From: Rhodothermales bacterium
GTDB taxonomy: Bacteria; Bacteroidota; Rhodothermia; Rhodothermales; JAHQVL01
DNA length: 51,166 nucleotides
Reading direction: 5' to 3'
Assembly: GCA_041738655.1 (NCBI GenBank)
Contig: JBGSPJ010000472.1
Coordinates: 1 to 51,166 of the forward strand
The notes beneath the pieces were generated by a model. That model searched no databases. It saw only the letters and a list, made by a program, of their open reading frames with translations, and had not been told where the DNA came from. Positions 13,515-24,352 of the stretch are shown here, piece after piece. The position numbers and the translations under genes were made by a program. Position 1 is the first letter of the stretch. Every line of letters begins with the position of its first letter.

Positions 13515-16172
13515 CTACCAGGAAACCGAAAGGTCGAACGAGGGCTGTAAGCCGAGGTCGTATACGTCCACATTGACAAAGGAAAAGCCGAGCGCCGGCC
13601 TGTCGGGATTGTATACCTGCACCGGGTCCCGATACCACGTGTTTGGCCGATCGTATACGTTATATACAGAAATGCGTGCATCGACGCGAACCCCTCCAAA
13701 CGGCCTGCTGAACCGTATCCCGCAGTCGAGCCGATGATAATCGGGCAGGTAGACGCGCTCGAGAGGGTCGTCGTACGCCAGGATGTTGGGCGTGCCCGTT
13801 GTATAGTACCAGGTGGCGTAGGCCGTCAAGACGCGGTGTAGGGGAATCGCCAGATGCGTCGAAAACTGGTGCCGCCGGTCCCACTCCGCCGGAAAACGTT
13901 CACCCCGATTGACCCGCGCGTTTTGCAGCTCTACTCGCGAGAGCGTGTAGCTGGATGTCCAGCGCACGTCTCCGATCATCTGGCGAAACATCACTTCGAC
14001 GCCTCTCGCATAGGCCCGGTTATCTGAAAACCAGGGCACAAAACGGTTGTCGTTGGCCGTTGTAATGCCAGCCGGCGCGTTGATTTCGTGCCGCCGGATG
14101 TTCGCGTGTTCGCGCGAATAGGCTTCGATCTGCAGGGCGGCCGAACGATGCGGCTTCATGTAGATACCTGCCGTGAGGTTATTAACTTCACTGGGCTTCG
14201 ACGCACCCGTAGTCATGATCCAGACGCTCGCGCTGTTTGTATTCTGTAGATAGAGATGGTGTAGAAACTGGTAGTTCTTACTGAAGCCCAGCTTAAAGGA
14301 AAGGGGTTTCCCGGGAAGGATCGTCAGTTGCGCGCGAGGCGACAGTTTGAAACTGTTGCCCTGCGTAAAATAATGGCTGCGAAGACCGATGTGGAGGTCG
14401 ACATACTCGAGGTCCGTGGTCTCATACTGCGCGAAGGCATCGCCCTGTATAGCAAAATAGTCCTCATCGAACTCGGGCCGGCTCGCCGAGCGTTCATTGT
14501 AAAAGAGGGCGTAGTAGTTCGCCGCCATTCCCAGTGTCCATTGCCCGGCGTAGTTCGGCGTCAGGTTCAGCAGTTGGGCCCACTGGAAGTCGAACAACTC
14601 GTTCTCGTACTCGAAGGGGAAGATGAAATTGCGCGGCTGCCCTGTCTGGTTGTTGATGCGGGTAAATACGAAATCATCTTTCCCGAAGAAGCTGCGGTAG
14701 TGGCTGCCGGCCAGTACGGACTGGAGATAGGCCCGCCGGCCAATCGGGCGGTAGAACTGGAAGCTGACGGCTTCGTTACCCCATCGGTTGCGGGTTTCAA
14801 CCTCCCGCGTGACAGCTTCGAGGACATTGGACACCGAGTCCCGCTCGGCGTACACGCGCTCGGCATCCAACAGGGTATGATTCCCACCGAAGTAGATCGT
14901 GGCCATACGCCGCCGGCCGTTTGCGGCTTCCGTGTAGAGCTTACCGTGGAGATCGTAGAAGCGGGCCGCTCCGGCGAGGGGGGTCACCAGGCGGTTTTCC
15001 ACGCCGGCGTATTCTGGAGGCAGCGCACTTTTGGATCGACTCACATCCAACCCCATCAACACCAGGTTTTCGTTGTTCAGCCAGTCGATGGCGTCGATGT
15101 ACGAATGCCGGCCGGAAACCAACCAACTTGACCGACCGACCCCGATGGGGCCTTCAAGAGTTCCGCGGACGGCCGTGCTGCTCGCCCCGAGCGCTCCGCG
15201 TACCCGGTTCAGCGAACCTGTGCGCGTGATAAATGACATGGTGCCCCCGGGTGGGGCAAAATAGCTGGCCGGCGCGATGTCGTAATAAAACCCTACCGTC
15301 TGCAGCGCATCGCTATTAAAGACGTCGAAGAAACCGAAGAAGTGATTCTGATTGTAGATCGAGGCCCCATCGAGCAGCACCTGGAACCCATCCGCCTTAC
15401 TCCCGCGCACGTTCAGGCCGTCGGTCATGGCCGGCGACACGGCCACCATCGGCAGGGGTTGGAGGCCGCGTAAGATGCTGCTCTCGCTCAGCGGGGAAAA
15501 TCGGTCCGTTTGAAGCAGGTACAGCCAGGTCGTATCCAGATCCGTCTGCAAGATTGAACTGCTCACCAACACCTCCTGCCCCCGGATCGGCTCGGGTATG
15601 AGTCGAATCGAGAGCTCCTCGGGGTAAGTGCCGGCAACCATGCGCCAGACGGTAGTCTGATAACCGATATATGAAATATGCAGATCGACCGTCGGCATGG
15701 CGGCAAAGGAGTCGTCGATCCGAAGGGTAAAGACCCCTGCTTCGTTGGTTGTGACGCCACGGATTCGCCCGTCCTGGAGCCAGGAGACACTGGCGAACGG
15801 CAGTCGGCCACCGCTCTCCGCATCGATCACCTGGCCAGAAACGGTGGTGGGCGCCTGCTGAACATGTGCCGGGGGCTCGAACAGCAGGATCTGGTGATGG
15901 GCGGGGTCGTAGCGCATGTCTATGCGCAGCGTGGCCAGTGCGGCCTCAAGCGAAGGGACGAGATCGTTAGCCTGAGAGGAAAGGGTGATGCGTTTCTCCG
16001 CGATCAGCGCGTCGCGAAAGAGGAAGCGATACCCCCCGCGCTGCTGAATATCCGCGATCGCTTCGCTGAGCGGGGTGTTGGTGTAGGAGAAGCTTTGTCC
16101 CAGCGCTGGCACGGCCAAGACGCTCAGCACCACGAGGATGGCGAAATAGCGCAGATTATGGACGGGATTCAA
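13515..16172 (-). CDS. TonB-dependent transducer (STN + carboxypeptidase-regulatory-like domain + plug + beta-barrel)
   Basis: Signal peptide, YRFLFRDALI (STN-like), SGQVIDAESGGRLPFASV..SYIGY, LNVRG, LPDYHRLD, YNVYDRPN, C-terminal W; start (TTG ~16172) uncertain. Confidence 0.9.
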   Translation of the reverse strand: MNPVHNLRYFAILVVLSVLAVPALGQSFSYTNTPLSEAIADIQQRGGYRFLFRDALIAEKRITLSSQANDLVPSLEAALATLRIDMRYDPAHHQILLFEPPAHVQQAPTTVSGQVIDAESGGRLPFASVSWLQDGRIRGVTTNEAGVFTLRIDDSFAAMPTVDLHISYIGYQTTVWRMVAGTYPEELSIRLIPEPIRGQEVLVSSSILQTDLDTTWLYLLQTDRFSPLSESSILRGLQPLPMVAVSPAMTDGLNVRGSKADGFQVLLDGASIYNQNHFFGFFDVFNSDALQTVGFYYDIAPASYFAPPGGTMSFITRTGSLNRVRGALGASSTAVRGTLEGPIGVGRSSWLVSGRHSYIDAIDWLNNENLVLMGLDVSRSKSALPPEYAGVENRLVTPLAGAARFYDLHGKLYTEAANGRRRMATIYFGGNHTLLDAERVYAERDSVSNVLEAVTREVETRNRWGNEAVSFQFYRPIGRRAYLQSVLAGSHYRSFFGKDDFVFTRINNQTGQPRNFIFPFEYENELFDFQWAQLLNLTPNYAGQWTLGMAANYYALFYNERSASRPEFDEDYFAIQGDAFAQYETTDLEYVDLHIGLRSHYFTQGNSFKLSPRAQLTILPGKPLSFKLGFSKNYQFLHHLYLQNTNSASVWIMTTGASKPSEVNNLTAGIYMKPHRSAALQIEAYSREHANIRRHEINAPAGITTANDNRFVPWFSDNRAYARGVEVMFRQMIGDVRWTSSYTLSRVELQNARVNRGERFPAEWDRRHQFSTHLAIPLHRVLTAYATWYYTTGTPNILAYDDPLERVYLPDYHRLDCGIRFSRPFGGVRVDARISVYNVYDRPNTWYRDPVQVYNPDRPALGFSFVNVDVYDLGLQPSFDLSVSW

Positions 16173-17139
16173 ACCGGTAGCGTCGGGCGCCGGCGTCGAC
16201 CCGGTTGCTGTTTGTTGCCATCCCCAATTGATCCAGCGCGCTCGGGAGGGAATCGAGAATGATCGTTCCCGATACGGTTTCAGCCAGCCTGTCCGAAGGA
16301 AATTCAATGACGATACCGAAATGGAATTCAAGCTCATCTACCACGTGAGCGAGAGGTTGGCGGGTGAACCGCAACTCGTCGTCGATCCAGTCCAGCGCTT
16401 CTTCCTCGGAACCGCCATGGCCTGCGATCTCCGCGCCGAGGCTATTGACGCGCCCGAGATCCCCTGGTTTCAACACGACGGCACTGCCGGAGGGCCTGTG
16501 TTGCAGGGATACGCTTCCTGATTTGAGGAAGACCTCAACCGATTCTCCCCAGGTTCTGACGACAAACTGCGTGCCCAGCACGGCGATCACGGCTTCGGAA
16601 GAGGAGACCATGAACGTCCGTGATTCGTCCCGAACAACATCGAAGTAGGCTTCTCCCTCCAGGGTGAATTGATGGGGCGAATCCTGCGCGCCGGAGTGGT
16701 AGAGGCGGGAATGAGGGCGGAGGGTGATGATCGAGCCCTCGGCGGTTGTATATATCGCAGGCGCCTCGGCGGCTTCGGCCAGAATGTGCGGCGCCTGGGC
16801 ACGACGAGTGATGAGCCATCCCAGGGCTACGACCAGCAAAAAACTGGCGGCGATGGAAAGCCGGAAGAACCGGCTTCTCAACCGTTGCCTCCGGATCGGG
16901 GGGCGGGCGCCGGCTTCGGCAGGCGTCATAACGTGTGTCACGACGGCCTGCCACATGCGAGCCGACTGGTCGGGCGTTGGCCTGTCGCGGCGACTGTCGG
17001 TCGCGGCTTTGTAGCGGTCCAGCAACGTAACCAGAGGATCTGAGGAGCTGGCCAGAGTACCCTCGTCGAGACGCTTCCCCAGGTGGTGCGCGGCGATCAT
17101 ATCGCGATCGCTATCAGGGAGGGAGGAATCGTCGTGCAT
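16156..17139 (-). CDS. fecR: FecR-family anti-sigma/signal transducer
   Basis: Single TM, then LEGEAYFDVVRD, VLGTQFVV, FTRQPLAHVVDELE. Confidence 0.9.
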   Translation of the reverse strand: MHDDSSLPDSDRDMIAAHHLGKRLDEGTLASSSDPLVTLLDRYKAATDSRRDRPTPDQSARMWQAVVTHVMTPAEAGARPPIRRQRLRSRFFRLSIAASFLLVVALGWLITRRAQAPHILAEAAEAPAIYTTAEGSIITLRPHSRLYHSGAQDSPHQFTLEGEAYFDVVRDESRTFMVSSSEAVIAVLGTQFVVRTWGESVEVFLKSGSVSLQHRPSGSAVVLKPGDLGRVNSLGAEIAGHGGSEEEALDWIDDELRFTRQPLAHVVDELEFHFGIVIEFPSDRLAETVSGTIILDSLPSALDQLGMATNSNRVDAGARRYRFESRP

Positions 17140-17228
17140 GGCACGCACCGAAGAAATTGAGGGTGAGCGTGGAGGCGCCCCCCTTCGCACGATCCGGTCG
17201 GCCGGCGAAGGAGGGCGTCGGAGCGTAA

Positions 17229-18245
17229 TCAGCCGTTGTCGCGGCCGGAGTTGTCGTCGTTCTCGCGGTCGTCATCCCCGCGGTCATCGTCATTCTGACG
17301 TTCCCGCTGGCCGTCGCGCAAGTTGACGCGGTAGATCGGGTTCAGCCCGAGGAAGCGAAGCAGCGCATGGCCATCGCCGGCAAGGTCGATCGTGCCTTCG
17401 GTTTCCTTGATCGTCGTTTCTCCGTTGATGGTCTCCGTCAATGTCATCTGGTAGCTGATGGTGCCCGAAACGTTCGTTTCCAGGTCGTCGTCGTCGCCAC
17501 CGGTGCTATCGTCGGCCAGGGCAGTCTGGGAGATCGTTACATCGACGGTTTCCATCGTCAGCGTGTACGAACCCTCCACGGTCAGCGAATCGCCCATCGT
17601 CCGGGCAAACGTGCCTTCTTTGGTCTGCGCGCCGGACAACGTAGCCACCGAATCCGAGCCGTTCAAGCCGGCGAGGTTCCACTGCGCATCCTGCTCCATG
17701 GTCGCTGAACGGGTATCGCCCGAATCGTACGTGTAAGCGGCCGTCCCGGTACGGGTGCCGGTGAACGCGATGGCGGCAATCTGGCCGCGATTGGTGATCG
17801 GTTCTGCGACAAAGCCGCCCGTGGTATCGGTGAACACGTACTGGAGGTTCACATCGACAGACTTGCTGCAGTTCTCGGCTTCATGCTGCCGGCTGTAGGC
17901 GATCGTAAAGGTGCCCGTGGTGGGGTCGTAATCGCGCGAATAGTCCCGGTTGACGCCGCGGCAGGGGCGCAGGCCCGGGTTGTTCCAGAAATTGCGGCCG
18001 GTGTAGAGGAGTCGCTGGTTGTCCACACGGGCCGTCATGTCGTTCAGGTCGGCCATGAGGCCTTCGCTTTGATCCGACAGCGACTCGGCCATGAGCTCGG
18101 AAGCCAGTTCCAGGTCCTCGGCCGTCATGGCCGCCACTTCGGGCTCGTCGTTGTTGAGAATGTCGCAGCCCGTGAGGGTGAAGGCGAAGAGCGCGGAGAA
18201 TACCGCGACGCGCTTCAGGTTGGGAATAAGATCTATGCGTTGCAT
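17229..18245 (-). CDS. Thr-rich beta-structured lipoprotein with acidic C-terminal tail
   Basis: Lipobox FTLTGC; start at MQRIDL assumed. Confidence 0.75.
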   Translation of the reverse strand: MQRIDLIPNLKRVAVFSALFAFTLTGCDILNNDEPEVAAMTAEDLELASELMAESLSDQSEGLMADLNDMTARVDNQRLLYTGRNFWNNPGLRPCRGVNRDYSRDYDPTTGTFTIAYSRQHEAENCSKSVDVNLQYVFTDTTGGFVAEPITNRGQIAAIAFTGTRTGTAAYTYDSGDTRSATMEQDAQWNLAGLNGSDSVATLSGAQTKEGTFARTMGDSLTVEGSYTLTMETVDVTISQTALADDSTGGDDDDLETNVSGTISYQMTLTETINGETTIKETEGTIDLAGDGHALLRFLGLNPIYRVNLRDGQRERQNDDDRGDDDRENDDNSGRDNG

Positions 18246-18354
18246 GATAGGATGTCGGTTGAAGTTGATCAGGAGATAGGCGATGGGGGTGTCAATCTGA
18301 CAATAGCGGTACACCGGAGGATCACATCACCCCTAAATCCGCCGCTTTTCATCC

Positions 18355-18945
18355 TTAACGAAAGTGGGCCAGTGCGCCACGGATGCTCTTCAGCGCAAAC
18401 GCCATCTGATTCTCCACCGTCTTTATGCTAATGCCCAGCATCTCAGCCGCTTCGCGGTACGACAGCTCCTCCAGGAAGCACAACTCGAATACCGCCCTGC
18501 GGCGCTCGGGAAGACCGGCGATCGCACGGGTTAGCGCGTCGTGCATGGCGTTGTAGTCGTGGCCGGCGCTGACGGAATCGGTAGCCTGCCGGACGTCGAT
18601 CTCGGCGTGGTGGTCGAACTTCGCGTTGTCGCGGAAATGGTTGAGCGCACGGGTGTGACCGATTCGAAAAAGGAAGGCGCGGATTGATTTATTCTCATCA
18701 ATTTGGTCGCGCTTGTCCCATATCATCACAAACGCATTCTGGACGATATCGGACGCCGTTTCCTGGTCGATCCCCCTTCGGCAGAGGTACCCGAAAAGCA
18801 CCCCATGGTAGCGATCGAAGAAATGCTTAAAGGCGCCATGGTCCCCGCGCTTGATGCGGCGGGCCAGTTCGGCGTCTTCCAGCGCCTGGGCGACGTGGAT
18901 GGCCAGGTAGATGAGCAGCGAAGCGACGGTAATCAGGGTCAGCAC
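18355..18945 (-). CDS. ECF RNA polymerase sigma factor (FecI-like)
   Basis: GDHGAFKHFFDRY, ASDIVQNAF, LPERRRAVF..LSYREAAEMLGISIKTVENQM; start (GTG 18945) uncertain. Confidence 0.92.
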   Translation of the reverse strand: MLTLITVASLLIYLAIHVAQALEDAELARRIKRGDHGAFKHFFDRYHGVLFGYLCRRGIDQETASDIVQNAFVMIWDKRDQIDENKSIRAFLFRIGHTRALNHFRDNAKFDHHAEIDVRQATDSVSAGHDYNAMHDALTRAIAGLPERRRAVFELCFLEELSYREAAEMLGISIKTVENQMAFALKSIRGALAHFR

Positions 18946-19209
18946 AGCGGGTCTTCTGGCGTATGGTTGGTTTCCGGTAGGAGGGTGAGGCTGGAGGTGG
19001 CGCCGCGCAGCGCCGGCGCAAGCACTGTGCCGCTTCAAGACGGTAGGAGTCCGATTAGATACGAGCGCCCCCGCATTATCCTGCGAAAAACAGCCGTCCG
19101 ACTATCCCGGAAGACAGACAACCGGAAGGCTGGCTGGCCACGGATGAAACCGGGCAGCCTATCCATAGTTCTAAAACGAGGCTTCCATTCATAACAATAC
19201 ACTCCGCGA

Positions 19210-19560
19210 TTGCGCATCCAGCGGCGACATATTGGCGTTCTGATGCTCCTCGTACTGATCGGGGGGAGCATCCTGTCGCCAACCGTGCACATTCTTCTGC
19301 ACGATGTAGCGAATGCGCATGGAGAATGGGACCCCCATGCGGATGTCGAGTCCGTCTCGATTGGCAACGAGTGCAGCCGGCCGCACGCGCCTGAACGTCC
19401 GTGCATCTTTTGCACACAGATATCCCTCTACGCCGGCATCCTGTACGATCACGCACCTCTCTGGCTCCCTATCGAAACGCTGGACGTGCCACCGGGCATG
19501 GTGCGCACCTCTACTCGTACGCTTGGAGAAGGCATCCGGGGCCCGCCCGTCTTCGTCTGA
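19210..19560 (+). CDS. DUF2946/CruR-like leader protein with CxxC and C-terminal RGPP motif
   Basis: N-terminal hydrophobic segment, His-rich stretch, CIFC (19402-19413), IRGPP three codons before the stop, directly upstream of a TonB receptor. Confidence 0.8.
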   Translation: MRIQRRHIGVLMLLVLIGGSILSPTVHILLHDVANAHGEWDPHADVESVSIGNECSRPHAPERPCIFCTQISLYAGILYDHAPLWLPIETLDVPPGMVRTSTRTLGEGIRGPPVFV

Positions 19561-19619
19561 CCACGCCCGTCGCGCCGCCCGTTAAGGGCCGCCGGCGGTG
19601 AACAATCCTGTCGATGCTG

Positions 19620-19647
19620 GAAATCGCCCTCATTTGCGGGCGGTTTT
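19620..19647 (+). terminator. Terminator/attenuator-like hairpin between the leader ORF and the TonB receptor
   Basis: GAAATCGCCC-N8-GGGCGGTTTT, ~20 nt before ATG 19669. Confidence 0.45.
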
Positions 19648-19668
19648 CGTGGTTATACGAACGCAGCT

Positions 19669-22026
19669 ATGCGCAATCCCTCGTTGTCAAGACGGTGGCT
19701 CTTTCCCGTGGTCCTCCTTTTGTGGAGCACTTTCGGCGGGAGCCTCCTCGCACAGACCCTCCATGGTGTGGTACGTGCGGCTGATGCCAGCCCTCTGCCC
19801 GGTGCCAACATCTACCTCTCGACCCTCCAACGGGGTGCCGTAACAGATCCCGCGGGGTTGTATGAGATCGATAACCTGGCGGTGGGAACGTACGAGGTGG
19901 TATTTAGCTTCATCGGGTATCGCTCGGAGACGCGTACGGTCGCGATCTCTCCGGGACGGAATCGTCTCGAGGTGACGCTCCAGGCAGATGTGGTATGGAC
20001 GGAAGAGGTGCTCGTCGCGGCCGAGCAGGAAAGCCGGCTGACCGTCGACACCCGCTCGGTCGCCATACTCGATGCCGCGGCGCTGGATGAGGTCCGCGGC
20101 CAGACATTGGGCGAAACGCTCGAACATCTCCCCGGAATGACCGCGCTGCAAACAGGCCCATCGATTTCGAAGCCGGTCGTGCGCGGCCTCCATAGCCAGC
20201 GGGTGCTGGTGCTTAACGCCGGCGTATCGCAGGAAGGGCAGCAGTGGGGCGGTGAACACGCGCCGGAGATCGATCCGTTCGCGCCCGTCCGGATCGAGGT
20301 GATCAAAGGGGTGGCCGGCGTCGAATATGGCGTTGGCGCCATCGGCGGCGTGATCCGCCTGGAACCCCTGGAACTGCCCTACATTCCCGGCACGGCCCTC
20401 CGCGGGCAGTTCTCGGGAAACGGATTCTCGAATAACCGTCAGGGCGCTGCCGCGCTGTACCTCGAAGGCGTTGCCAACCGGCTACCGGGCTTCGGTTGGC
20501 GGGCGCAGGGCAGCTTCCGCAAAGCCGGCGACGCCCAGGCCCCCCATTATATCATCCCCAATTCGGCGTTCCAGGAGCAAAACGGCGCCCTCACGCTCGG
20601 TTATCGACGCGGCGCCTGGAATTTCCTGGGTCATCTGAGTCACTTCGGAACGGAGCTGGGCATTTTCAGCGGCGCGCACATCGGCAACCTGGATGATTTG
20701 CTCCGTGCGATCGAACGAGGGCAGCCTTCCACGATCGGTACCTTCGGATTCGATATCGGGCCCCCCAAGCAGTTGATTACGCACGATCTGGCGTCCTTAC
20801 GCAGCCGGTACACGTTGCCTACGGGCGCTCGATTCGAGGTGCAGTACGGGTTCCAGCGCAATCATCGGCAGGAATTCGACGCCCACCGTCCGTACAGTGA
20901 CTCCCTCGCGGCCCTCAATCGGCCGGCCTTCGAACTGAGCCTGCTCTCGCACAGCGTCGAGGCCCGGTTTCACCACCGCCCGGTCGGCCGGTTTTTCGGG
21001 GTGATGGGATTCAGTGGCATGAACCAGCTGAACGTCAACGGGCGCAGCGGCTTTCTCATCCCCAACTTTCGATCGTTCAGCGGCGGGGCGTTCGCCCGCG
21101 AGACCTGGGTAAACGGCGACTGGCAGGTTGAAGCCGGCGCCCGCTACGACTACCGCTGGGTGCGCGCCTGGCCCCGTGAAAACGGTGGCAGCGGCGATTT
21201 CGTGCCGCGTGTGAACGACTATGGAAGCCTATCCGCCGTGCTCGGCGCCATCTGGCAATTCGCGCCAGCGTGGTCGCTCGCCACCAACCTCGGCACCGCC
21301 TGGCGCCCCCCGAGCGTCAACGAACACTACAACTTTGGCGTCCACCACGGCACCGCCCAGTTCGAGATCGGGGATCCCAACCTCGATGCCGAGCGCAGCC
21401 TGGGCATCGACGTGACGCTGCGCCACGACGGAACCAGTACGCGTCTCGAAGTCAGCGCCTACTCGACGCAGTTCCAGCAGTTCATTTACCTCTACCCGGA
21501 TCCCTCGCCGCGCGTCACCATCCGCGGCACGTTCCCCACGTTCCGCTACGCCCAGGCCGATGCGCGGCTGACCGGGTTCGATGCCTCCGTCGAGTATGAC
21601 CTCAACCGGACAATCACCCTCGGCATGGTATCGTCGATCGTGCGCGGCCAGAATCTGGACGACGATGAGCCGCTGTATCAGATGCCGGGCGACCGGTTGC
21701 GCCTCGTCGGTCATATCAACCTGTCCGGCAGCAAGACCGTGCGGGAGCCCCACTTCGAGGTGGAGTCCGCCCTCGTTGCCCGGCAAACCAGGTTTACCGC
21801 CGGCGTGGACTACGCCGAGCCGCCCCCCGGCTATCACCTGCTGAACGCTTCGTTCGCGACCGACCTGCAGGTCAACCAAACTCCCGTCCACGTCCATCTG
21901 TCGGTGCAAAACGCGCTCGACACGGTCTATCGGGACTACCTGAGCCGCTTCCGGTATTTCATCGACGATCCCGGAAGAAGCTTTGTACTGCGACTGAGCG
22001 TGCCAATAGGCGCCCCACGGGTGTGA
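19669..22026 (+). CDS. TonB-dependent receptor (ZnuD-like/metal uptake type)
   Basis: Carboxypeptidase-like N-domain, KPVVRGLHSQR, GQQWGGEHAPEID, GVHHGTAQFEIG, YRDYLSRFRY..PGRSF. Confidence 0.93.
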   Translation: MRNPSLSRRWLFPVVLLLWSTFGGSLLAQTLHGVVRAADASPLPGANIYLSTLQRGAVTDPAGLYEIDNLAVGTYEVVFSFIGYRSETRTVAISPGRNRLEVTLQADVVWTEEVLVAAEQESRLTVDTRSVAILDAAALDEVRGQTLGETLEHLPGMTALQTGPSISKPVVRGLHSQRVLVLNAGVSQEGQQWGGEHAPEIDPFAPVRIEVIKGVAGVEYGVGAIGGVIRLEPLELPYIPGTALRGQFSGNGFSNNRQGAAALYLEGVANRLPGFGWRAQGSFRKAGDAQAPHYIIPNSAFQEQNGALTLGYRRGAWNFLGHLSHFGTELGIFSGAHIGNLDDLLRAIERGQPSTIGTFGFDIGPPKQLITHDLASLRSRYTLPTGARFEVQYGFQRNHRQEFDAHRPYSDSLAALNRPAFELSLLSHSVEARFHHRPVGRFFGVMGFSGMNQLNVNGRSGFLIPNFRSFSGGAFARETWVNGDWQVEAGARYDYRWVRAWPRENGGSGDFVPRVNDYGSLSAVLGAIWQFAPAWSLATNLGTAWRPPSVNEHYNFGVHHGTAQFEIGDPNLDAERSLGIDVTLRHDGTSTRLEVSAYSTQFQQFIYLYPDPSPRVTIRGTFPTFRYAQADARLTGFDASVEYDLNRTITLGMVSSIVRGQNLDDDEPLYQMPGDRLRLVGHINLSGSKTVREPHFEVESALVARQTRFTAGVDYAEPPPGYHLLNASFATDLQVNQTPVHVHLSVQNALDTVYRDYLSRFRYFIDDPGRSFVLRLSVPIGAPRV

Positions 22027-22121
22027 GGCGCCTGATCGACACGCAAGGAAGCCCCGGGTGCTCGGCGGTGCAACGCCGAGGGCCTGATTCTGTACCAAAA
22101 ACAAACCCTACCCAGGAAGCT

Positions 22122-22691
22122 ATGAACCACCTACTCAAGTCTACTTCGTTCGTTTCCCTGTTCCTTTTTATGGCACTGCTCGTCGTGTTGCCGGGGTGTG
22201 ATTCCGGCGAGCCCGACGATGACGCCGGCGAGTCCGAACTCATCACCCGTGTTACACTCACCCTCACGCCGATGGCCGGCGGAGACCCTGTGGTCGCTGT
22301 CGCCGAAGACCCGGATGGCGACGGTGCTAACCTGACCATCGACCCGATTGATCTCGTCCCCGGTACCACCTATCTGGGCGAAATCGAGCTGTTCGATGGG
22401 GTGAACGACGAGGATATCACGGCCGAGGTCGAAGCCGAATCCGATGAGCACCAGTTCTGGTACACCGCGGAGGGCGGCATCGCCGGCCGGGTCACGGTGG
22501 CCATCACGGACACGGATGCCAACGACCTGCCCATCGGGCTGACGTTTACCGTTACGGTCACAGCCGGCGCGGCGACAACCGGGACGCTCAACGTGGTGCT
22601 CAGCCACTACGACGAAAGCCCGAAGACGGGTACGGACCGGAGCGATGAATCGGATATCGACATCGACTTCCCGGTGACCCTCGTCCTGTAA
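22122..22691 (+). CDS. Acidic lipoprotein partner of the TonB receptor
   Basis: Lipobox LPGC; ELITRVTLTL, DITAEVEAESDEHQFWY, VLSH, SDIDIDFPV; AGGA before ATG 22122. Confidence 0.85.
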   Translation: MNHLLKSTSFVSLFLFMALLVVLPGCDSGEPDDDAGESELITRVTLTLTPMAGGDPVVAVAEDPDGDGANLTIDPIDLVPGTTYLGEIELFDGVNDEDITAEVEAESDEHQFWYTAEGGIAGRVTVAITDTDANDLPIGLTFTVTVTAGAATTGTLNVVLSHYDESPKTGTDRSDESDIDIDFPVTLVL

Positions 22692-22774: not shown

Positions 22775-24352
22775 TTAGAATGGCGCTTCGGCGCCAGGAG
22801 GCAGCGGGATGGAAGGCGCCCGACTTTCGCCGCGATCCCCACCGTACTCGTATGCGCCGGCGCCCTGCTCCTGGATGTACGTGGTGAGGTTCTCGAATCG
22901 GGCGAATTGATTGACAAAGGCGAGCTGCACGTCGCCAATCGGGCCGTTTCGCTGTTTCCCGATGATGATTTCACCGATCCCCTCCGTCGAGTTTCCGTTT
23001 TCGTCCACCGTGATCCCGTACCGTTCGGCGCGGTAGATGAAGGCGACGAGGTCGGCGTCCTGTTCGATGGAGCCGGACTCGCGGAGGTCGGACAGTTGCG
23101 GTCGTTTATCGCCGCCGCGGGTTTCGACCGCGCGGCTGAGCTGGGCCAGGGCGATCACGGGCACATCGATTTCCTTCGCGAGCGATTTCAGGGATCGCGA
23201 GATCTGGGCGATTTCCTGTTCGCGGTTGGAGTTTTTGGCGTTGCCGGTTCCGTGCATGAGCTGCAGATAGTCCACGATCACCAGACCGATGTCGTGTTCG
23301 GCCTTGAGCCGCCGGCTTTTGGCGCGCAACTCCAGCACGCTCAATCCCGGCGTATCGTCGATAAAAATCGGGGCGGCAGAGAGCTTGCCGGCGGCACGTG
23401 CCAGCTTGGGCCATTCTTCATCCCGAAGCCGGCCCGTTCGCGCGGCCTGGGCATCCACGCGCGCTTCGGAGGTGAGGAGCCGCTGCGCCAGCTGCTGCGC
23501 GCCCATTTCAAGCGAGAAGTAGGCCACGCCGGTCGGCTTCTCTGGATGTAATGCTGCGTTTCGTGCCACCGCCAGGCTGAAGGCGGTTTTACCCATCGAA
23601 GGACGCGCGGCAACAATAATCAGGTCGGTTTTCTGCCAACCGCCGGTCATGTCGTCCAGACGGGTGAAGCCGCTTGGTATGCCTGTGATGCCCCCCTCGC
23701 GGCCGTGGACGGCTTCTAGCGCGGCCAGCGTCCCCTTCAGCACATCGTTCATCGACGTAGCCGAGCGGCGCAGCTGGTTGTCCGAAATCTTGAAGATCTC
23801 CCGCTCGCTCGAATCCAGCAACTCAAAGGCGTCGGTGCCGGGATCGTATGCCGTGCCGATGAGGCCGGTCATCGTTTCGATCAACTTGCGCAGCAGCGAC
23901 TTTTCAGCGATGATACGCGCATGATATTCGACATTCGCCGCCGTGTCGACGGCCGTGGATAACTCGGTCAGGTAGTAGGAGCCACCAATATCATCGAGTT
24001 GGCCACGGCGGCGCAATTCCTCGGAGAGGGTGATGTGGTCGACCGGATTACCACGCTCGAACAACGCGAGAATCCCCTGGTAGATGAGCTGATGCTTGGT
24101 CAGGTAAAAGGTGTCTTGCGGCAGAATTTCGATGGCGCGCGGGATCGCGTCGCGCTCGATGAGCATAGCGCCCAGCACCGAACGCTCGACGTCGGTAGCC
24201 TGGGGCGGTGTGCGCCCGGTTTTTTCGTTCGATCGTTTCACTTCGGCCTTTGGCGCCCGTTCGCGCTCGCGCGCCGGCGGCGGGTCGAACGAATAATCGA
24301 CCTCATCGTCCGCGAAATGGAAGGGGGGAATGCTATCGTCGAAGTCGGACAT
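22775..24352 (-). CDS. dnaB: Replicative DNA helicase
   Basis: AARPSMGKTAF, FSLEM, IVDYLQLM, SDLRESGSIEQDAD, KQRNGP. Confidence 0.98.
   Translation of the reverse strand: MSDFDDSIPPFHFADDEVDYSFDPPPARERERAPKAEVKRSNEKTGRTPPQATDVERSVLGAMLIERDAIPRAIEILPQDTFYLTKHQLIYQGILALFERGNPVDHITLSEELRRRGQLDDIGGSYYLTELSTAVDTAANVEYHARIIAEKSLLRKLIETMTGLIGTAYDPGTDAFELLDSSEREIFKISDNQLRRSATSMNDVLKGTLAALEAVHGREGGITGIPSGFTRLDDMTGGWQKTDLIIVAARPSMGKTAFSLAVARNAALHPEKPTGVAYFSLEMGAQQLAQRLLTSEARVDAQAARTGRLRDEEWPKLARAAGKLSAAPIFIDDTPGLSVLELRAKSRRLKAEHDIGLVIVDYLQLMHGTGNAKNSNREQEIAQISRSLKSLAKEIDVPVIALAQLSRAVETRGGDKRPQLSDLRESGSIEQDADLVAFIYRAERYGITVDENGNSTEGIGEIIIGKQRNGPIGDVQLAFVNQFARFENLTTYIQEQGAGAYEYGGDRGESRAPSIPLPPGAEAPF

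Follow-up and report, generated by a model that had tools for sequence, protein, structure and literature searches.

A putative metal-sensing arrest-peptide leader ahead of a TonB-dependent receptor and a lipoprotein in Rhodothermales

Introduction

Metal-sensing arrest peptides have been recognised only recently, CruR in 2022 and CutF between 2023 and 2025, and the only two that have been studied both come from Proteobacteria and both respond to copper. Here, we describe a leader open reading frame (ORF) from a Rhodothermales bacterium (Bacteroidota; contig JBGSPJ010000472.1 of assembly GCA_041738655.1) that precedes the genes for a TonB-dependent receptor and a lipoprotein. The stretch of DNA analysed, referred to as the window, is 51,166 nucleotides (nt) long, and coordinates are given on its forward strand (+) unless the reverse strand (-) is named. 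In our reading, to which we assign a probability of roughly 0.72, the leader of this three-gene operon would belong to a divergent, mostly Pfam-invisible Rhodothermales branch of the CruR/CutF metal-sensing arrest peptides and would act with the polarity of CruR.

CruR (Bp2923) of Bordetella pertussis is the copper-responsive upstream ORF (uORF) of cruR-bfrG-bp2921 and belongs to the Pfam family DUF2946 (Roy et al. 2022, PMC9426467). It contains a CXXC motif and, three residues from its end, the sequence RAPP, with a conserved spacer of 45 residues between the two; within the Bp2923 family the distance from CXXC to R-x-P-P is conserved to within 1-2 residues. Its read-out is Rho-dependent termination from a bubble, located in the 3' part of the ORF, in which C exceeds G (C>G). 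While stalled, the ribosome bars Rho from this bubble, and copper relieves the stall (PMC9426467). In vitro, CruR has been shown to arrest with its two proline codons occupying the P and A sites, and the cores RGPP and RAPP are equally robust in causing arrest (PMC12992588). The background invoked when the locus was first flagged by a model from its sequence (the original prediction), namely DUF2946/CruR leaders and ribosome stalling at RAPP/RGPP, is correct in the light of this work.

CutF of Rhodobacter capsulatus is, like the leader described here, a small exported protein that carries a Cys motif and, at its C-terminus, a proline motif for stalling, and it acts in cis through an mRNA helix that hides the start region of the next gene, as the leader may do as well (Ozturk et al. 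2023, PMC9973294). Unlike the leader, CutF has a CxxxC motif and a PPP-type tail that depends on elongation factor P (EF-P), its stalling is induced by copper and it controls a multicopper oxidase. A list of CutF-like proteins (list D) has 5,334 entries, 19% of them from Bacteroidota, and among their neighbours TonB-like proteins rank second in frequency (PMC9973294). The RAPP/RGPP arrest peptides, including ApcA, ApdA, ApdP and a set from Streptomyces lividans (Fujiwara et al. 2024, PMC10987492, and 2025, PMC12992588), resemble the leader in that a small protein, secretory or membrane-bound, has the motif close to its C-terminus and is encoded upstream of a co-directional gene. Such RGPP/RAPP uORFs are enriched before TonB-dependent receptor genes of Gram-negative bacteria, in a survey that was motif-based and not family-based (Fujiwara et al. 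2025, PMC12992588). In contrast to the leader, the RAPP/RGPP peptides tested experimentally are, in the accessible parts of this literature, Sec/YidC monitors or come from Actinomycetota or Proteobacteria, and none is described there from Bacteroidota or Rhodothermales. A more distant parallel is SecM of Escherichia coli, an exported leader with a C-terminal arrest site near its stop codon, where the stall opens a helix that masks the next start. The SecM arrest motif reportedly ends in GIRAGP, which the GEGIRGPP of the leader resembles. Unlike the leader, SecM monitors secretion and has neither a CxxC motif nor a fixed ruler to a ligand site, and there is no evidence of homology between the two.

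The locus in the window shares with cruR a small first gene before a TonB-dependent transporter, an N-terminal export or anchor segment and a fixed spacer between the motifs, as well as a C>G bubble towards the 3' end of the ORF, an intergenic region that is long and structured and, among the neighbours of the family, MbnP and AhpC/TSA. It differs from cruR in that the core of the leader is RGPP and not RAPP, and in an invariant P-x-x-H with a further His at the end of the anchor. The spacer is 41 residues in the leader and 40-42 in its branch, that is 3-5 residues shorter than the 45 of Bp2923 CruR. The third gene encodes a surface lipoprotein in the window and a PepSY_TM protein in the cruR operon, the receptor of the window is ZnuD-like and Cys-free, and pairing between the stop region of the leader and the receptor start is not part of the published CruR model. 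The host is a member of the Rhodothermales, whereas the published census of DUF2946 lists Proteobacteria and a few Planctomycetes, Firmicutes and Deinococcus (PMC9426467). Our literature searches retrieved no paper on the Rhodothermales leader branch, with the limit that the protein lists behind the bulk surveys are not visible. The kind of system is already known, and the bulk surveys report both CutF-like proteins in Bacteroidota and RGPP/RAPP uORFs before TonB receptors; what distinguishes the branch is the RGPP core, the 41-residue ruler, P-x-x-H, Pfam invisibility, multi-copy expansion and the lipoprotein partner, and 'uncharacterised', the word used in the original prediction, is a fair label for it.

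The leader gene and its conservation

The leader gene (19210-19560), assigned by conservation and profile comparison as a putative divergent CruR/CutF (DUF2946-type) arrest-peptide leader, encodes 116 amino acids (aa) when read from a TTG start. Gene callers use the ATG at 19243 instead, which gives a protein of 105 aa (protein database entry P0001). We favour the TTG because the MRIQRRHI stretch 5' of the ATG is kept at the protein level among orthologues and because one orthologous species has an ATG at the aligned position. An N-terminal hydrophobic segment (19231-19287, residues about 8-26), preceded by RIQRRH and with a mean Kyte-Doolittle value of up to 2.21 over 19 residues, is the predicted anchor or signal. 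Its end carries P24-x-x-H27 together with H31 and H43 (19279-19338), which are candidate metal ligands and lie in the motifs H27ILLH31 and AHGEWDPH43, the latter also containing H37. Further on come C55SRPH and the CxxC motif C65-I-F-C68 (19402-19413), the latter 41 residues before the predicted arrest motif R110-G-P-P113 (19537-19548), after which V-F-V and a TGA stop codon (19558-19560) follow, the stop three codons on. The ORF, its transmembrane segment, the His and Cys motifs and RGPP are therefore all present at the coordinates that the original prediction had given. The leader is the first gene of a three-gene unit in which a gap of 108 nt separates it from the receptor gene and 95 nt separate the receptor from the lipoprotein gene; the gene that follows (22775-24352) is on the opposite strand.

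A C-terminal RGPP/RAPP motif by itself proves nothing: as many as 58 six-frame ORFs of at least 70 codons in the window's genome have RGPP or RAPP within their last 14 residues, most of them Arg/Pro-rich junk frames, and only four of the 58 resemble the leader family. The comparison between genomes is more informative. Homologues with 72-77% identity occur in Rhodothermales metagenome bins and one with 49% in a congener, and weak full-length matches (26-29% identity, E 0.003-0.008 per genome) were found in three other families of the order. Two of these weak matches (L004 and L005) directly precede a CarboxypepD_reg/plug-type receptor gene, and at a third (L008) a small lipoprotein gene lies between. 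A profile built from the window's protein and eight relatives (A1, nine sequences), in which RGPP is invariant, matches 142 of 201 sampled genomes of the order at E ≤ 0.01, corresponding to 109 of the 153 genomes of good quality and 73 of 91 genera; a genome often carries 2-4 copies, and all 30 of the best loci inspected hold an ORF that ends in R[AG]PP plus at most eight residues. Searched against 1.84 billion representative proteins, A1 retrieves 297 at E ≤ 1e-3. Across the phylum, 19 of 301 genomes match at E ≤ 1e-4, of which 12 belong to the 18 genomes from within the order and seven to the 283 from outside it. The seven loci outside the order have the anchor, the His residues, a Cys motif (CxxC in six, CxxGC in L057) and R[AG]PP; by hand count the spacers are 43-44 residues in six outside-order Bacteroidota loci, and the downstream N-terminus looks receptor-like by eye in three. 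On these comparative grounds the leader ORF is a real gene under constraint, because its whole layout is conserved among relatives that are only 17-44% identical to it.

Family architecture

The anatomy of the family was examined in an alignment of the window's protein with 147 of 150 listed representatives (A2, 148 members; P0003, P0038 and P0060 were left out). Sequence identity to the window's protein is 17-44%, and the layout is rigid. The N-terminal hydrophobic segment is found in 134 of 148 members and P-x-x-H in 145, with the extended P..H...H in 111; conservation is complete at P24 and reaches at least 90% at H27, H43 and C68. The C-terminal core is RGPP in 122 members, RAPP in 24 and RDPP in one, while a single member that lacks the tail has no motif. 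The arrest motif is followed by 2-8 residues, most often three (78/147), the residue before it is I or V in 102 of 147, and the last residue of the protein is Ala in 72. In the 117 members that carry CxxC, the spacer between this motif and the Arg is 40 residues in 13, 41 in 74, 42 in 28, 43 in one and 47 in one, so that 115 of the 117 fall within 40-42 residues.

The stretch from CxxC to the arrest motif varies at almost every position but keeps to a length of 40-42 residues. Judged from the alignment, such constancy of length with freedom of sequence is what one would expect of a ruler, which would set how far a ligand site lies from the peptidyl-transferase centre. The same feature bears on the very unlikely alternative that the leader is no regulator at all and instead works as a stable small inner-membrane metal-binding protein, a chaperone or acceptor, in which RGPP is structural and causes no stalling. 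The His and Cys residues would suit such a protein, the gene is always co-directional with transport genes, as one for a subunit would be, and we know of no test of stalling with any Bacteroidota ribosome. However, free sequence at a fixed length speaks for a ruler and not for a folded domain, RGPP/RAPP is under-represented in proteomes and over-represented at the C-termini of small exported proteins (PMC12992588), and CruR can hardly be detected and is presumed to undergo degradation (PMC9426467).

Of the 30 members without CxxC, most belong to a one-cysteine variant, about 26 of the 148 members, with a single Cys in C-[DE]-Y-A-x-L-F-A-T and, after the anchor, H-[YF]-x-[FY]-M; examples are P0005, P0017, P0026, P0042 and P0070. 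The window's genome (G000) encodes three more leaders, at C461:7167-7559 (+), C671:416-802 (+) and C43:1009-1413 (-), corresponding to loci L009/L044, L060 and L061, all of this subfamily (H-Y-x-[FY]-M ... C-x-Y-x-x-L-F-[AG]-T) and all ending in RGPP plus 2-5 residues. The genes that follow them encode an AhpC/TSA thioredoxin-fold lipoprotein, a TonB-dependent receptor and a small His/Asp/Glu-rich lipoprotein, respectively. The omitted entry P0060, a protein of 1931 aa, matches positions 24-91, in the middle of the leader profile, at six places along its length and may be a His/Cys-rich repeat protein.

Relationship to DUF2946

The original prediction had proposed a hidden Markov model search against DUF2946 (PF11162) as a check, and its outcome is divided: the window's protein itself is negative, while among its relatives PF11162 matches 71 of 148 at E ≤ 1, 16 of 147 at E ≤ 1e-3 and seven of 147 at the gathering cut-off of 23.7 bits, the last over the full length of the model. 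One of these seven, P0008 (26.7 bits to PF11162), is very similar to the leader found at the syntenic locus of a sister genus, where the sigma-leader-receptor order is the same. When the window's clade (A4, five sequences) was compared by hhalign with the seven Pfam-accepted relatives (A5), which had been found with a profile seeded from the window's family, the probability was 98.5% (E 1.8e-15, 113 columns), and the anchor with its His residues, CxxC and RGPP were placed in register. Three of the seven Pfam-accepted relatives have the one-cysteine form, and one of these precedes MbnP.

Other resources annotate the family sparsely. When PF11162 was run against all six frames of the window's genome (E ≤ 10), it picked out three other places and not the leader ORF; NCBIfam models gave only insignificant matches across the 148 members (CzcI 5, CopL 3, LpqS 4; best E 0.0019); and a word-indexed protein search with A2 returned 35 matches, all named 'hypothetical protein' and none with a Pfam label, and so yielded no DUF2946 reference set independent of the family. 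In a protein atlas, the leader lies next to clusters of hypothetical proteins of ~117 residues, the nearest of which has DUF2946 on 12% of its members, which we take as a lead only. Judged by profile comparison, the leader is a DUF2946 homologue that has drifted below the reach of the Pfam model: it fails the formal threshold and is of the same superfamily. As an FCB-lineage (Fibrobacteres-Chlorobi-Bacteroidetes) counterpart of DUF2946/CruR, which is how it had originally been classed, it also agrees in layout, stop distance and neighbourhood and broadly in its spacer, which is tightly conserved in the branch yet 3-5 residues shorter than that of Bp2923.

The receptor, the lipoprotein and synteny

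The second gene of the unit (19669-22026) encodes a TonB-dependent receptor of 785 aa in which Pfam recognises a CarboxypepD_reg-like domain, a plug and a barrel. It contains GVHHGT and GGEHAP, and its composition includes 0 Cys, 6 Met and 23 His. All its matches to NCBIfam models are far below the respective cut-offs, including ZnuD (NF038289; 135 bits, partial, cut-off 950) and OprC/NosA (TIGR01778; 54.8 bits, cut-off 472). The copper site of OprC consists of Cys, Met and His. The nearest solved chain is that of ZnuD (4rdr, E 4.6e-21).

The third gene (22122-22691) encodes a lipoprotein of 189 aa from an ATG at 22122, with the lipobox LPGC (Cys26) followed by DSGEPDDD, and contains SDEHQF; the HHG and EH motifs predicted earlier for the receptor and the EH motif of the lipoprotein thus recur in GVHHGT, GGEHAP and SDEHQF. 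Its invariant residues are the lipid-anchor Cys, the acidic stretch after it, E102, E106, H110, H162 and E176. The family is present in 55 of 121 genomes of the order, and a comparison of match positions finds it in 30 other genomes on the same strand and within ~3.3 kb after a leader match. An AlphaFold2 model is an immunoglobulin (Ig)-like beta sandwich with a mean predicted confidence (pLDDT) of 89.8. Foldseek found no match for this model in the PDB at E ≤ 1e-3, VIA-align in wide mode returned generic Ig-like sandwiches only (best Z 7.7; CrdA at rank 30 with Z 5.8), and a search of the sequence against solved structures gave nothing below E 0.07. The fold gave no lead to a function. The lipoprotein probably partners the receptor at the cell surface. 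For receptors of non-SusC type in Bacteroides, lipoprotein 'lids' have been proposed in a preprint (10.1101/2023.03.17.533168), and by analogy the lipoprotein of the window may be a lid of its receptor. The window's lipoprotein and its 25 orthologues (A3) share C-D-S-x-E-P-D directly after the anchor Cys and have a strictly conserved, metal-site-like set E-x3-E-x3-H ... L-x-H-[YF]-[DE] ... E-x-D-x-D. C-D-S-x-E-P-D resembles the acidic surface-export signal of Bacteroidota lipoproteins.

Synteny was not used in the family searches. Among 28 downstream ORFs that were scanned, 21 encode receptors with CarboxypepD_reg and plug domains, one encodes MbnP and one AhpC/TSA, and five have no family, three of these being small lipoproteins; the AhpC/TSA thioredoxin-fold lipoprotein follows a leader paralogue that the window's genome also encodes. 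Next to cruR homologues, receptors, MbnPH-like genes and AhpC_TSA genes have been described (PMC9426467), and the neighbourhood of the leader family matches this published synteny.

The neighbourhood also bears on a distinctly improbable alternative, in which the leader would sense something other than metal, either thiol-disulfide state through a disulfide in its CxxC or the efficiency of membrane insertion or secretion through a pulling force on its anchor. Consistent with this, the paralogue just mentioned precedes a thioredoxin-fold lipoprotein of AhpC/TSA type, RAPP/RGPP uORFs with paired Cys residues are reported before genes for DsbA/thioredoxin-domain proteins (PMC12992588), and the 30 of 148 members that lack CxxC still have the anchor and the arrest tail. 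However, the conserved His residues beside CxxC and the receptor and MbnP neighbours point to metals, and classic secretion monitors precede sec or yidC genes and not receptors.

Candidate read-outs: Rho, start-site masking and hairpins

Between CxxC and RGPP, the leader gene contains a C>G bubble (19364-19519, GC skew -0.19 to -0.36) that is a candidate Rho-utilisation region. The last 200 nt of the leader show C>G in 40 of 44 related loci, and the first 80 nt past the stop in 33 of 44, versus 20 of 44 for stretches of receptor coding sequence. Rho is encoded in the genome (624 bits, over the cut-off).

A second candidate read-out involves a long-range helix. The minimum free energy (MFE) fold pairs the last two codons of the leader, its stop codon and 4 nt (19552-19564) with 19649-19661, an arm that ends 8 nt before the receptor ATG, and an analogous helix is predicted in five orthologues of differing sequence. 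Pair probabilities were compared with those obtained after dinucleotide shuffling of all sequence downstream of the stop window. For the window, this test gives 12.3 expected pairs joining the stop window to the last 35 nt ahead of the receptor start, as opposed to shuffle means of 3.4-3.7. Among 21 loci chosen by a fixed rule (gap of 60-260 nt), pairing exceeds the shuffle mean in 15, with a Fisher's combined p of 0.0015 that is overstated since the loci are related. Stalling should open this helix because a ribosome with Pro112 in the P site covers the message to ~19558-19560 and so most of the 5' arm. The region 19530-19690 folds with an MFE of -66.4 kcal/mol (z -1.95, with 7 of 200 shuffles as stable), which is mildly unusual for G+C-rich DNA. 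The window thus carries elements of both the Rho read-out of CruR and the start-site-masking read-out of CutF.

The helix invites the rival polarity, in which binding of metal to the exported CxxC would induce or prolong the stall, open the start-region helix and switch the receptor and lipoprotein genes on. CutF, which its authors count as a DUF2946 member (PMC9973294), works in this way: copper-induced stalling melts a stem-loop that covers the next gene's ribosome-binding site (10.1101/2025.02.05.636593). The helix between stop and start regions is present in the window and tends to recur, and the leader has a strong export/anchor segment. Nevertheless, we consider this polarity unlikely, as the cargo is an uptake-type receptor module, normally repressed by its substrate, whereas CutF controls a detoxifying oxidase, and CutF combines CxxxC with an EF-P-requiring PPP-type tail, whereas the leader has a CruR-type CxxC and R-x-P-P three residues from its end.

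As predicted originally, hairpins lie 3' of the leader, and folding places two of them in the 108-nt gap. Hairpin 1 (19567-19598) is G+C-rich, and its outer CCGCC/GGCGG pairs are kept, by eye, in the closest orthologue. Hairpin 2 (19619-19648; GGAAAUCGCCC...GGGCGGUUUUC) is terminator-like, with a G+C stem and UUUU 20 nt before the receptor ATG. On the strength of this feature, one could imagine attenuation by intrinsic termination at 19619-19648 and its U-tract unless a stalled ribosome blocks the hairpin, an explanation that appears highly improbable: a terminator scan of 18900-19800 made no call on the + strand, the U-tract is absent from both congeners, and a ribosome stalled at 19543-19548 ends ~60 nt 5' of the hairpin and would not reach it directly. 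In L013, where the protein is 77% identical, the stem is kept and GGUCUCC replaces the U-tract, and the hairpin of L014 is likewise without one. We rejected hairpin 2 as a conserved intrinsic terminator on account of the scan and of the missing U-tract in these two other species of the genus, and the part of the original prediction that made it the read-out does not hold.

Proposed mechanism and candidate ligands

We infer stalling, ligand, polarity and the relative weight of Rho and start-site masking from the analogies drawn above, which suggest the following model. The nascent leader peptide would be anchored or exported via its N-terminal hydrophobic segment, and the ribosome would stall at R110-G-P-P113, Pro112 then occupying the P site and Pro113 the A site. 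In this state CxxC, 41 residues behind, would lie just past the exit tunnel, where it could bind metal together with the conserved His residues. When metal is scarce, the persistent stall would shield 19364-19519 from Rho, and the stalled ribosome would melt the 19552-19564/19649-19661 helix that occludes the receptor start, so that receptor and lipoprotein would be made. When metal is present, its binding or the folding of the nascent chain would free the stall and the ribosome would terminate three codons later; Rho, the re-formed helix or both could then shut off the uptake genes. We favour this CruR polarity because the cargo is an uptake module. We estimate that a ruler of 41 residues may be roughly long enough to cross the exit tunnel as far as the translocon, which would allow sensing coupled to export.

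As for the ligand, the precedent of CruR and CutF and the MbnP and AhpC/TSA neighbours of paralogues suggest copper by analogy. Zinc is a serious alternative, suggested by the ZnuD-like, Cys-free receptor, the His/Glu/Asp site predicted in the lipoprotein and a possible Cys2-His2 set in the leader.

Several observations weigh against assigning the leader to the CruR/CutF type, or against parts of that assignment. The window's leader has no Pfam match at E ≤ 1 and likewise none in NCBIfam, and a C-terminal RGPP is not rare in a G+C-rich genome, with 23 frames that have RGPP near their end compared with 20 for an AGPP control. CxxC is missing from 30 of 148 members, and the motif and spacer counts given above are partly circular: the search profiles contain RGPP and penalise insertions and deletions, so the frequencies are inflated, a bias of which the synteny and Pfam results are free. 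Copper is made insecure as ligand by the receptor, which is Cys-free, has 6 Met and resembles the copper receptor family less closely than it does the zinc receptor ZnuD, and also by the lipoprotein, whose invariant residues are His, Glu and Asp. As regards the helix, pairing is at or below the shuffle mean in 6 of the 21 loci, and a cruder test, in which RNA duplexes were sought between the stop region and 500 nt of downstream sequence at 44 loci, yielded z-scores spread about 0; we judged this test too noisy for G+C-rich DNA and replaced it with the pair-probability test. The intergenic gaps range from 37 to 703 nt, a poor fit to a single start-site-masking design. Finally, the export signal is dispensable in CruR, so that sensing during export is not implied by the precedent (PMC9426467).

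A more specific reading, which we regard as speculative, would make the leader a sensor of zinc or another divalent metal with a Cys2-His2 site split between H27, H31 or H43 and CxxC. The site would assemble as CxxC emerges from the tunnel or translocon, 41 residues behind the RGPP-stalled ribosome, and metal-driven folding would pull on the chain and release the stall. The 2-4 copies per Rhodothermales genome would each be paired with a different uptake module, the one-cysteine subfamily would have a different ligand, and Rho would act together with start unmasking as the read-out. Bacteroidota are largely without Shine-Dalgarno sequences.

Upstream and opposite-strand neighbours

A promoter-like sequence, TGAAAC-N17-GTTCTAA (19145-19174), lies 36-65 nt 5' of the TTG start. 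A MAFFT alignment of upstream regions shows it to be shared by all three species of the genus (L012, L013 and L014) and not kept in the sister genus, and a sigma-70 promoter scan made no call at 19145-19174. It resembles a -35/-10 pair of the extracytoplasmic function (ECF) sigma type and may be a promoter of that kind.

The strand opposite the leader holds a separate-looking unit (13515-19038, -). It comprises a divergent ECF sigma gene (18355-19038, -), an ORF for an Asp-rich, lipoprotein-like protein of 361 aa with no family match (17229-18314, -), a FecR-like anti-sigma gene (16156-17190, -) and a gene for an outer-membrane-type protein of 940 aa with a CarboxypepD_reg-like domain and no detected plug (13515-16337, -). 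The ECF sigma factor and FecR were considered as parts of the leader system and rejected: the sigma gene adjoins the leader in only six loci, all of one taxonomic family, and its own strand runs on into the FecR-like gene and that of the 940-aa protein, so we treat it as a neighbouring unit.

Concluding remarks

The leader design is common in Rhodothermales, where it occurs in ~70% of sampled genomes, annotated as 'hypothetical protein' and mostly missed by Pfam and NCBIfam. The branch offers natural variation for tests of the mechanism, in RGPP versus RAPP, a 41- versus a 45-residue ruler and CxxC versus a single cysteine, and also in cargo, with the combination of a ZnuD-like receptor and a His/Glu-rich lipoprotein. 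Such variation is relevant to a possible extension of the mechanism to zinc and to the way in which stalling is read out where Shine-Dalgarno usage is low. For annotation, the findings argue for a wider family model and for treating leader, receptor and lipoprotein as one regulated unit. If the zinc reading is true, nascent-chain metal sensing would extend from copper to zinc uptake and to the surface-lipoprotein/receptor pairs of Bacteroidota.

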